DNA of 64,000 nt, taken from assembly GCA_963737265.1 (NCBI GenBank), contig CAVTRY010000017.1, forward strand, positions 32,001 through 96,000, written 5' to 3'. Below, piece after piece: positions 61,448-64,000 of this stretch (position 1 is the first letter of the stretch; each line of letters begins with the position of its first letter). The notes below the pieces were generated by a model. It did not search any database, was not told the origin of the DNA, and saw only the letters and a list, made by a program, of their open reading frames with translations. Made by a program: the position numbers and the translations under genes. The DNA is from an uncultured delta proteobacterium (GTDB lineage: Bacteria; Myxococcota_A; Polyangia; Fen-1088).

Positions 61448-61517
61448 CTGGAAGCGTGGGCCGTGCCGGCGACAGCGGCGACCCCGGCCGGCACGATATT
61501 CGCAGAGCTTGCCGGCC

Positions 61518-62588
61518 ATGCAGCCTCGTATCCAAAACGGCGGCCAGGGAGCCAGGATCATTCCTTTCGTCCGACCGAATTTCCGACCGAATCTCCGACC
61601 GAATCCCGGCCGACCGGCCGAGATTCCGACCAACCCACCGCGCCTTCTCGACCAAGTCCGAGCAAGCCTGCGAGCCCGGCACTACAGCCGGCGCACCGAG
61701 AAGGCGTACGTCGCATGGATTCGCCGATTCATCCTGTTCCACGGCAAGCGCCATCCTGAAGAGATGGGCGGGGTCGAAGTTGGCGCGTACCTTTCCAGCC
61801 TGGCCAGCGAAGCAAAAGTCAGCGCTTCGACGCAAAACCAGGCGCTGGCGGCGCTGCTATTCCTTTATCAGCAAGTGCTGGGGCGCGAGCTGGAATGGCT
61901 GGGAGAACTGGTTCACGCCAAAGGTCCGGTGCGCGTACCCGTCGTGCTGGGACGTGACGAAGCGCGATCTTTGCTCACGCATTTGCAGGGCCCGGCGTGG
62001 CTGATTTGCGCGCTTCTCTACGGCAGCGGCATGCGCTTACTCGAGGTGCTGCAGTTGCGCGTCAAGGACATCGACCTGAATCGCCGCGAAATCACCGTTC
62101 GCAGAGGCAAGGGCCAGAAAGACCGCCGAACTGTTCTACCCGGCACGCTGGTCGAACCCCTGCGCGCCCACCTGGCGGCCGTCAAGACGCAGCACGATGC
62201 GGATATCAACCTGGGTGCCGGCGCCGTGGTTCTGCCTGATGCCATCGGTCGCAAGTACCCGAGCGCCCCGCAAGAATGGATCTGGCAGTGGGTCTTTCCC
62301 GCAACCCGCACGTACACCGATCTCGCAAGTCGGGAAGTTCGTCGCCACCACCTGCACGAATCCGTCATCCAGCGCGCCGTTCGCCGCGCCGCCGTGGCCG
62401 CGCGCATTCCCAAGCTGGTCAGCCCCCACACCCTGCGTCATTCCTTCGCCACCCACCTGCTGGAAGACGGCTACGACATCCGCACCATTCAGGAGTTGCT
62501 AGGCCACAAAGACGTGGCCACGACCATGGTCTACACCCACGTCCTGAACCGCGGCGCTGGCGGAGTCCGAAGCCCTCTCGACCACTGA
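61518..62588 (+). CDS. intI: Integron integrase (tyrosine recombinase)
   Basis: [22 protein letters not shown], IntI-specific insert [10 protein letters not shown]...[18 protein letters not shown] and TMVYTHV. Confidence 0.95.
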
Positions 62589-62744
62589 CAACGGGCGCAA
62601 AGAACGTGGCTCCCATATTTATCCGGCCGCCGCGCCGTTATTATCCGGCAGGCCGGCTGGTCGCCTCGCATGAAGCAGACGCATCCAAGTCCGCGAAATG
62701 ACTGGAACGGCACCCCCGCTTTCAGCCATCACGGCGTGCATCCA

Positions 62745-62791
62745 GCGTTGGGATATTGATTATTTTTCGTGGGATAATGGTAGTTCGACGG
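62745..62791 (+). promoter_or_regulatory. Putative attI site with crossover G/TTCGAC at 62783
   Basis: AT-rich patch ending in GTTCGACGG, the exact reverse complement of CCGTCGAAC at the start of the downstream attC. Confidence 0.6.
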
Positions 62792-63017
62792 TCAAACGAC
62801 TGGCAAGGCGACGGGTATCGGAGGGCCCGGACGGAACAATATCTCAGGTCGGCGTGCGACTGGGCGTCGCCGGCCGTACCACTTGCGGCGGCGATCGGTG
62901 CTCGCGACGGCAATCACGGCAGGTCGGCGAACCTTGGCGCTGGCATCGGCAGCGAAGATGTTTGATCTCACAGGATCCCAAGGACGAGGGTTCGCCGTCG
63001 AACAAGCCGTTGCAGCG
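62784..63017 (+). mobile_element. First integron cassette (short, no clear ORF) ending in a truncated attC (62995-63017)
   Basis: CCGTCGAAC-AAGCC-GTTGCAGCG resembles the R''-spacer-L'' arm of attC, then the sequence switches abruptly. Confidence 0.65.
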
Positions 63018-63231
63018 CTCGTAGGCAGTGCAAGTAAAAAGAACAGGGAGTGATTCGGGTCGTCTGGGCACACGAGATCCGTTCCGCGGTCAGGAAGATG
63101 CGGTGGAAAGGATCAGGTGCGCGAAGAAGATTTGAGCGGGCGAGAGATCGGGAGGCAATCGGCCTGGTAATCGAAACGCTCCAGTAGGATGTCCGCGAGG
63201 GCCGGCATCGAGTCAGCTTGCAACGGAGATT

Positions 63232-63507
63232 GGGTCAGGTCGATGGATCCTCAGGGTGCCTCGAAACAGACAGCGCTCTTGCACAAGGCAGAGATGAGCT
63301 TCAACAGGAGGTCACCCGTCGGATATCTCACACGTTCAAGGAATTGGTTTGCTTTGGTTGTTTGCTCCTTTTCTGCAAGTGGGTCTGACCAAGATGGACA
63401 GGGTCAGATCAAAAATCCTCAGGGTGCCTCAAGACAGACGGCGCTCTTGCACATGGCAGAGATACGCTGCAACAGAAGGTCACCCTTCGGAAATCTAGAA
63501 TGTTCAA
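63232..63507 (-). ncRNA. Putative bridge/seekRNA with two tandem target-binding-loop units (63232-63339 and 63401-63507)
   Basis: ~108-nt imperfect direct repeat with conserved stems and varying loop segments. The segment at 63465-63473 reads GTTGCAGCG on the minus strand, identical to the flank at 63009-63017. Confidence 0.65.
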
Positions 63508-63533: not shown

Positions 63534-64000
63534 CTACACCGTCACCTGCAGACGGCGGGTGTCGAAGAGCTTGCTGCTATCAAAGGTGCCACCGCGACCG
63601 ACGTGGTACAGCCCCTTGGCCAGCTTGCGCATCAGCGCGACGGCAGCTCGCGAGGCTCGGCCGCCGTCTCGTTGCTTTTTGCGCTGGTACCAGGCGTTGG
63701 CGATGGGATCATCCTGAATCCAGCGGAAGATGGCGAGCCAGAGTAGCTGGCGTACGCGGGATGGACCACGCTTGGTGATCTTGATCTGACCGTGCATGGT
63801 ACCGCTGCTTTTCTCCTTGAGGTTGAGGCCCATGGCTTTGAGGAAAGCGCGTGTACACGAGTACGATCGTGCATCACCGACCTCGGCGAAGATGGCGGCA
63901 GCGGTGGTGCGGCCGACGACGGGGGCAAGCGCGGCGGCGGGCGTGGTGGCGGCGAGTTTTTCGACTTTCGTCTTGGCCGTGCTGAAGGCCCGGTGGGCGT
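63534..64000 (-). CDS. IS110-family recombinase/transposase, C-terminal part
   Basis: Open frame from the window edge: VGRTTAAAIFAEVGD...AMGLNLKEKSSG...ITKRGPSRVR...AAVALMRKL (Transposase_20 domain with catalytic SG). Confidence 0.9.
   Translation of the reverse strand, partial: AHRAFSTAKTKVEKLAATTPAAALAPVVGRTTAAAIFAEVGDARSYSCTRAFLKAMGLNLKEKSSGTMHGQIKITKRGPSRVRQLLWLAIFRWIQDDPIANAWYQRKKQRDGGRASRAAVALMRKLAKGLYHVGRGGTFDSSKLFDTRRLQVTV

Follow-up and report, generated by a model that had tools for sequence, protein, structure and literature searches.

Tandem target-binding loops beside one donor-binding loop in the candidate bridge RNA of an attC-targeting IS110-family element

An insertion sequence (IS) of the IS110 family, lodged in an integron attC site of an uncultured delta proteobacterium, carries two tandem, diverged units in the non-coding region 3' of its transposase gene. 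From its sequence each unit appears to be a target-binding loop (TBL) of a 3'-encoded bridge/seek RNA, and a single structure downstream of them is read as the donor-binding loop (DBL). The whole region would thus be a bridge RNA in the known order of target loop and donor loop, with the target loop doubled. The DNA analysed was a window of 64,000 nucleotides, corresponding to positions 32001-96000 of contig C17 in genome G000. The window's end falls within the IS, which continues beyond it on contig C17; the contig was read onward as L001, in which a coordinate equals the window coordinate minus 61000. We hold with high confidence that the order at the locus is transposase gene (tnp), TBL-1, TBL-2, DBL and right end (RE). 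Comparison with relatives supports a conserved multi-TBL bridge RNA as the likely product of the region. For a bridge RNA of two TBLs and one DBL in which TBL-2 also acts as a guide, we regard the sequence evidence as evenly balanced.

Target and donor loops 3' of the transposase gene

The 515-nt non-coding region that follows the transposase stop codon ends at window position 63018 and contains both units. A sequence-only reading of the window had described tandem units with conserved stems and differing loops at this place, and their presence was confirmed. A direct repeat of 93 nt (63247-63339 and 63415-63507) recurs at a spacing of 168 with 85% identity, and the stem pattern GGGTGACCT-N44-53-GAGGCACCC has two matches in the window (63254-63317 and 63422-63485, both on the minus strand) against none in 100 shuffles. 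TBL-1, the transposase-proximal unit, spans 63414-63493 (minus strand; core 63422-63485) with the guides GTTGCAGCG and CGCCGTCTG. TBL-2, the distal unit, spans 63246-63325 (minus strand; core 63254-63317) with the guides GTTGAAGCT and CGCTGTCTG. The cores, of 64 nt each, are built as stem, internal loop and stem. Read on the transposase strand, a unit opens with an outermost helix of 3 bp and a helix of 9 bp in which one A is bulged; segment 1, an inner hairpin with the stem CTCTGCC..GCAAGAG, and segment 2 follow before the outer stem closes, the two segments being the 5' and 3' sides of the loop.

The guide of TBL-1 coincides with the DNA beside the element. The window has two occurrences of GTTGCAGCG, one in the attC flank (63009-63017, plus strand) and one in the TBL-1 loop (63465-63473, minus strand), so that the proposed identity between the proximal-loop segment and the 9-nt attC flank holds. 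Two hits of a 9-mer are unremarkable by count (53 of 100 shuffles had at least two), and the weight rests on the placement of GTTGCAGCG. As segment 1 of TBL-1 equals the plus-strand flank, its predicted partner is the sense strand. On the target's other side, the sense-strand sequence (..CGTC plus core) is reproduced in segment 2 (CGCCGTC-TG), which would accordingly pair with the opposite strand. In both units, one side of the loop matches one strand of the attC L'' region and the second side matches the other strand, as had been suggested. The earlier idea of a second guide in segment 2 survives at reduced length, with pairing over about 4-6 nt (CGTC plus core) and not over 8-10. This left-side match is short: the sense-strand sequence (C/T)GTC alone is common to the four genomic copies that possess a left end.

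Support for the helices comes from an alignment of 61 distinct units taken from this genome and relatives (alignment A1). Standard pairs fill 97.2% of its cells, compared with 29-53% when the partners are slid. Changes on both sides occur in 9 of 17 pairs, including all five pairs of the inner helix and all three of the outermost helix. The 9-bp helix is hardly variable, an invariance that is partly by construction in that the metagenome search pattern required exact outer stems in at least one unit. Single-sequence folds also recover the outer and inner stems of the units.

Alignment of 20 two-unit non-coding regions revealed, 23-24 nt beyond the distal unit, a further structure that is the most conserved part of the region. 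In the window it occupies 63170-63232 (minus strand), with a 5' side GTTGCAAGCTGACTC at 63210-63224, an inner stem-loop at 63188-63209 and a 3' side CTACTGGAGCG at 63177-63187; the 3' side is 100% identical across 15 non-redundant elements. Within the 5' loop, AGCTGACTC is the reverse complement of GAGTCAGCT, a string that joins the right end's final base, the AG core and the six opening bases of the left end. Among all 32 distinct sequences, down to 36% transposase identity, the structure lies 20-24 nt past the last TBL. Where the left end has changed, the loop has changed with it in L071 (left end AGTAACTA, loop TAGTTACT), L080 (TCGACT, AGTCGA) and L115 (TCTGCC, GGCAGA); L100 keeps five of six positions and L123 has one uncompensated change. 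Compensatory changes affect six of seven pairs of the inner stem over the 32 sequences. RNAalifold recovered the inner stem alone, the outer helices being seen by eye, and the apparent match between the 3' side and the right end contains an interruption of 2 nt (CCTAC-TG-GAG versus CCTACGAG). On the strength of the covariation between left end and loop, together with the compensatory changes in the inner stem, the downstream structure is read as a DBL that would pair with the ends of the element.

The two tandem units might instead be the target loop and the donor loop of an ordinary single bridge RNA, which likewise comprises two similarly built internal loops in the order target then donor (PMC11208160). 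We consider this hardly credible: the distal unit has attC-like guides with no match to the element ends, the separate downstream structure matches those ends and covaries with them, and single-unit relatives already possess a TBL and a DBL. The distal unit was accordingly rejected as a candidate donor loop, its guides failing to match the element ends.

Two further observations concern this region. Positions 63172-63193, around the 3' side of the DBL, are 73% complementary over 22 nt to L001 3809-3830, just upstream of the transposase start and including the ribosome-binding site; this could reflect chance or translational control. In the spacer between the TBLs, the motif AAAGGAGC (63364-63371, minus strand) is identical in 20 of 20 aligned non-coding regions, the spacer being otherwise variable. 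The motif resembles a ribosome-binding site, with no start codon within the next 10 nt.

Unit number and conservation among relatives

Relatives were collected in a metagenome scan that was pattern-dependent; the counts given here are those among the matches listed, and many insertions come from few genomes and are non-independent. Among 120 metagenome stretches listed, 38 encode a relative of the transposase (P0001) and 26 carry a unit of the CTCTGC/CAAGAG type, 13 of these 26 having at least two units. The remaining matches listed are chance or unrelated. A recurrent class of conserved 65-70-nt motifs starting GGGTGACCTCTT(C)TGTCGACC was seen in L027, L040, L049, L077, L084, L095, L127 and L132, where no transposase relative is present; in L049 the motif follows a 515-aa non-IS110 open reading frame (ORF).

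The count of units was restricted to distinct elements with an identified transposase C-terminus, at least one unit and a DBL. Of the relatives listed, 25 have one TBL, 11 have two and one has three; a variation in unit number had been named earlier as a point to check. Elements at least 82% identical to P0001 in the unit table have two or three units, except L104, whose contig stops 163 nt past the unit, and L006, for which no unit was chained by the script. Two units are also found at 81% (L111), 79.5% (L072) and 54% (L085) transposase identity, so that multi-TBL elements span 54-100%. All multi-unit elements have attC-type guides, and the relatives listed with other targets are all single-unit. 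In L011 (62% identity) no unit could be recognised 3' of the gene. The exact tandem pattern occurs in five metagenome-assembled genomes labelled delta proteobacterium or Myxococcales and in at least 13 metagenome contigs; a sample of 400 further genomes of the phylum gave no match to it. The two-TBL design is sporadic among the genomes searched.

The position of the units indicates which of them is the older. In single-unit elements the distance from unit to right end is 229-238 nt (313 in L093), and the last unit of multi-unit elements lies at an equal distance. TBL-2 of the present element lies about 234 nt from RE and about 23 nt from the DBL. Because these distances equal those of the sole unit in single-unit relatives, TBL-2 holds the ancestral position and TBL-1 is the added unit. 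In a FastTree phylogeny of the units (built on about 90 nt, with no support values), TBL-2 copies of elements with a 100-105-nt spacing cluster together and most TBL-1 copies form another group. As TBL-2 copies from different elements group in this way, the tree indicates that the duplication predates the divergence of these elements. Inter-unit spacings fall at 40, 84-89 and 100-110 nt, which suggests more than one duplication event.

Conservation was compared as mean pairwise identity across 15 non-redundant elements. The stems of both units reach 0.92-0.99, the guide segments 0.73-0.82, with 0.75-0.82 for those of TBL-2, and the spacer 0.64. The contrast between stems and spacer argues that TBL-2 is not decaying, and the notion of the distal unit as a decaying duplicate, raised with the sequence-only reading, is contradicted.

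A related explanation is that the second unit is a functionless, neutral by-product of local tandem expansion beside an IS110 transposase gene that has not yet decayed. The varying spacings would fit such a process in suggesting repeated duplications. Yet the two units are merely 85% identical, while the tandem repeats described in a preprint on IS110 elements were called at 95% identity or more (bioRxiv 10.64898/2026.08.14.744561). The stems have also kept their identity though the transposases differ by up to about 20%, the TBL-2 copies of different elements cluster on the tree, and an A to G change in the TBL-2 stem of G001 keeps pairing as G-U. We therefore regard neutral expansion as improbable.

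Guides and insertion sites

A BLAST search of the locus against its own genome returned five copies: three on C17, one on C11 (100% identical) and one on C13 (98.6% identical). One of the C17 copies is interrupted and cut off by the contig end. Every copy starts, on the plus strand, directly after R''-AAGCC-GTTGCAGC(G/T) of an attC site, as proposed for an IS110-family element inserted in attC; all five copies, and those of relatives, lie in one orientation after the L'' box. The right end with its subterminal inverted repeat (IR) spans 63018-63045 (minus strand), the copy boundaries being taken from the BLAST alignment of the five copies, and the right and left IRs match imperfectly (19 matches in 28 columns). 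The left half of the interrupted attC lies at 62996-63017 (plus strand) and comprises R'' CGTCGAAC (62996-63003), the spacer AAGCC, L'' GTTGCAGC (63009-63016) and a junction G at 63017. Its other half (L' GCTTAAC, R' GTTCGACGG) was found at L001 3925-3955, past the far end of the element, so that the far flank does complete the attC. That flank had been predicted to read GACGGCGC; its actual sequence is GACGACCACC (L001 3887 onward), which agrees over the four nucleotides GACG and departs from the prediction thereafter.

The four copies with a left end terminate in ..AGCTGACT, followed by GAC and variable attC sequence. The left junction is always GTC-AG and the right junction CG or AG, and one similar empty site has TG. 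With the crossover point inferred, these five copies and the empty site suggest that the first core position is free (NG on the sense strand). A degraded relative of 86% nucleotide identity, with a frameshifted and 5'-truncated transposase gene, lies at an attC GTTGCAGCT on C11 (1196706-1198843); it has about 1 kb of unrelated DNA where the guide region would be and is uninformative on guides.

Segment 1 of each unit was set against the first nine bases of the flank for 20 insertions, all of multi-unit elements and all with an in-register flank. L003, L009, L018 and L025 were dropped from this count because a small indel beside the right end shifts the flank 9-mer; read in register, the L018 flank equals its own TBL-1. 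Across 13 element types, the mean distance between the TBL-1 guide and its own flank was 0.71, compared with 1.65 on permutation, and none of 20,000 permutations was as low. Instances in which the TBL-1 guide and flank are the same include L010 (ATTGCAGCG), L072 (GATGAAGC) and L085 (CTTGCAC). Seven single-unit relatives gave guide-to-flank distances of 1, 0, 1, 0, 0, 0 and 3. In view of the own-flank covariation, TBL-1 is in all probability a working guide, and it would direct nearly all of the insertions seen.

A guide role for TBL-2, and with it a bridge RNA of two guiding loops, faces several contrary results, which we gather here. TBL-1 is the closer guide in 14 of the 20 insertions, five are ties and TBL-2 is closer in one, with an arguable further case among the ties. 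In the permutation test over the 13 element types, the TBL-2 distance was 1.91 against 1.82 permuted (fraction 0.81), a test that is low-powered in that the guide GTTGAAGCT occurs in 8 of 13 types; covariation of guides with insertion sites was accordingly found for TBL-1 and not for TBL-2, which counts against a guide array under the refuting condition set with the sequence-only reading. None of five insertions in G001 resembles the TBL-2 guide of that genome (GTTGTGGCT), and in G000 the full copies lie at GTTGCAG sites in five of five cases. On the structural side, the energies of single-sequence folds were no better than those of shuffles (z -1.33, +0.11 and -1.28), and a search of Rfam 15 (E up to 10) gave two weak unrelated matches only and no family match. 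Of the stem/internal-loop/stem fold expected earlier, the outer and inner stems were thus recovered without an advantage in energy, and the structural case rests on the covariation over 61 units, which supports the helices.

Individual sites give a more varied picture. The L114 flank, GTTGAAGCT, equals its TBL-2 guide and has one mismatch to TBL-1. G000 is without a perfect TBL-2 target: its GTTGAAGCT attC sites continue GTC or TAA, not GAC. The commonest empty attC type in that genome, GTTGCAGCT-GACA, is a hybrid of both guides. Copy c2 lies in a hybrid site: the base preceding GTC and the first core position, both core-proximal, fit TBL-2, and the more distal L'' position 5 fits TBL-1. Right-end remnants at attC sites read GTTGAAGCG (C7 296253) and GTTGAAGCT (C13 450500). 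Copy c5, the 98.6% identical copy on C13, has (at C13 376294-376357) a TBL-1 guide GTTGAAGCG, one change from GTTGCAGCG, yet lies in a GTTGCAGCG site. This difference between guide and site shows that guides drift among near-identical copies. A right-end scan in the genomes of five relatives added three sites only, none with units upstream.

These data have to be weighed against the explanation that TBL-2 is retained for something other than targeting, as an ancestral TBL tied to the DBL for folding, processing, transposase loading or regulation, with TBL-1 alone choosing the target. It would account for TBL-2 holding the position of the sole TBL in single-unit relatives, with respect to both RE (229-238 nt, 313 in L093) and DBL (20-24 nt), for a near-constant TBL-2 guide (GTTGAAGCT in those 8 of 13 types) beside a variable TBL-1, for TBL-2 guides that do not covary with flanks, and for TBL-1 being closer or tied in 19 of 20 insertions. 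Left unexplained are the attC-like character that TBL-2 segment 1 retains in every variant seen (GTTG/GTTC, with positions 5-9 variable), and the L114 and c2 insertions, which fit TBL-2 better. Moreover, in IS621 the two loops of a complex are supplied by different RNA molecules, and recombination proceeds in vitro when TBL and DBL are given as separate RNAs (PMC11208158), so that a DBL should not need a TBL in cis. We consider a TBL-2 without a guide role unlikely, if a serious contender. The contrary view, that this is a natural multi-guide bridge RNA whose duplicated TBLs hold two or three specificities, each acting in trans with one DBL, seems to us somewhat better placed, and we advance it tentatively, as falling a little short of an even chance. 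A widening of targeting by the multi-TBL design is plausible.

For the bridge RNA of two TBLs and one DBL, we propose the following mechanism. The 5' loop side of each TBL would bind the sense strand in the target's right half, made up of the core and the complement of the attC L'' box, and the 3' loop side, having the sequence of the left half (CGTC plus core), would pair with the other strand. The DBL would pair with the element's own ends at the circle junction. The region may be transcribed together with the transposase gene from a promoter at the junction of the circular form: joining of the ends yields TTGCAC-17 nt-TAAAGG in this element, and TTGACA together with TATAGT or TATAAC in its relatives, and no internal promoter or terminator was predicted in the region. 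Such a transcript might then be cut into TBL-only and TBL-DBL RNAs; a seekRNA-bearing transcript is described as being processed to short RNAs (PMC11187229). By analogy with IS621, any TBL RNA could act in trans with the DBL. In the weakest step, TBL-2 would serve as a second guide, less used or held in reserve, for attC sites of the GTTGAAGCT type.

The element, its setting and known counterparts

The transposase gene lies on the minus strand, its 3' part at window positions 63534-64000 and the whole gene at L001 2534-3802 (window 63534-64802), and encodes a 422-aa ORF, P0001. Its Tnp domain scores 54.3 bits against PF02371 (cutoff 21.3), and the DEDD domain PF01548 reaches 27 bits, under the cutoff of 29. 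Residues 30-405 align to positions 2-341 of the 343 in NF033542 (NCBIfam 'IS110 family RNA-guided transposase') with 112 bits against a cutoff of 140. Residues 325-334, GLNLKEKSSG, correspond to the C-terminal motif of the IS110 family, G-x-P-x4-S/T-G (PMC11187229), with L replacing P. P0001 is distantly similar in the Tnp domain to the recombinase chains of IS621 and ISCro4 (E about 1e-3). A tblastn search of 72,556 plasmid records found no close relative, the best matches having at most 30% coverage and at most 39% identity. The element is an attC-targeting IS110-family insertion with the IS1111-type layout of a 3' non-coding region and subterminal IRs. The assignment to IS110/IS1111 made at the outset stands for the IS110 family and for the layout; as the 422-aa protein is not close to plasmid-borne IS1111-type elements, the element would represent an IS1111-like layout in a separate clade.

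An integron integrase gene, intI (61509-62588, plus strand; TIGR02249 455.7 bits, cutoff 265; Pfam Phage_integrase and Phage_int_SAM_4), lies 430 bp upstream of the attC-inserted element. It precedes the attC sites and shares their strand (window 61509-63017). In the usual integron the integrase gene is divergent from the attC array; the arrangement here presumably recalls the 'inverted integrase' group of integrons.

Further along the contig, a group II intron reverse transcriptase/maturase (457 aa; RVT_1, GIIM) is encoded at L001 4266-6100 (65266-67100), immediately 3' of an intact attC, and the DNA 3' of that attC begins GTGCG. Near-identical stretches follow attC sites on C14, C13, C7 and C11, and the intron looks like an attC-associated one with several genomic copies. 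In the third copy of the IS, an insertion of 1.37 kb (L001 16776-18143), which encodes a 389-aa DDE_Tnp_1 transposase, interrupts the element close to the 3' end of the IS110-family transposase gene. An ORF of equal length lies at L001 13663-14832, and a repeated string suggests many genomic copies.

Among described elements, the closest in habit are the attC-targeting IS1111 elements ISKpn4, ISPst6 and ISPa25, which are described with one seekRNA of 82-86 nt (PMC11187229). Like them, the present element has a non-coding region 3' of the transposase gene, subterminal IRs and no target duplication, and its top-strand attC match lies 5' of, and overlaps, the bottom-strand match. Unlike them, it carries two tandem guide loops (one to three in relatives) in place of one seekRNA, and its transposase has 422 aa compared with about 330-350. 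Orientation-specific insertion at one attC end is likewise a property of the IS1111-attC group (ISPa21, ISKpn4, ISPst6).

Two-loop bridge RNAs of the IS1111 group have been predicted in the right end (PMC11208160). With the IS621 bridge RNA, the candidate RNA shares bispecificity, a TBL 5' of the DBL, and loop sides that pair with opposite strands around a core dinucleotide (PMC11208160, PMC11208158). In IS621, by contrast, there is one TBL and the RNA lies 5' of the gene, whereas two TBLs and one DBL lie 3' of the gene here; the first core position, too, is apparently free in the present element.

Two other systems have repeated or additional non-coding modules. Tandem non-coding repeats beside IS110 transposase genes resemble the units described here in position, but are at least 95% identical and are read as local expansion by donor half-matches; the accessible part of the preprint does not describe them as guide loops of different specificities (bioRxiv 10.64898/2026.08.14.744561). 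ISPpu9, of the IS110 family, is accompanied by Ssr9/MITEPpu9, an additional small-RNA module located 3' of its transposase gene, and recombination occurs at an AG dinucleotide (PMC12288879). Ssr9 has copies of the element ends of its own on either side, is independently mobile and is dispensable for transposition, whereas the extra TBL here has no flanking end copies and is a paralogue of a guide loop.

Bridge and seek RNAs are described as having one target loop and one donor loop. The main text of the literature covered gave no account of a bridge RNA in which several diverged target loops share a donor loop; 'tandem' and 'two copies' are absent from the text of PMC11187229, whose Supplementary Figs 6 and 7 (long seekRNAs, ISPa25) could bear on an earlier sighting of a second loop.

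A conserved set of two or three TBLs on one DBL may show how an element can change or widen its target without a non-mobile intermediate. If the multi-guide reading is true, such elements would spread over variable attC sites and acquire new targets by duplicating and diverging a loop without losing mobility, with TBL-2 as a conserved anchor guide and TBL-1 as a fast-changing, host-fitted guide. If TBL-2 does not guide, its strict conservation would point to a new role for a target-type loop in donor-RNA function. The multi-TBL design would be a natural template for multiplexed bridge-recombinase guides, and the targeting of attC bears on the colonisation and disruption of chromosomal integron arrays by insertion sequences.

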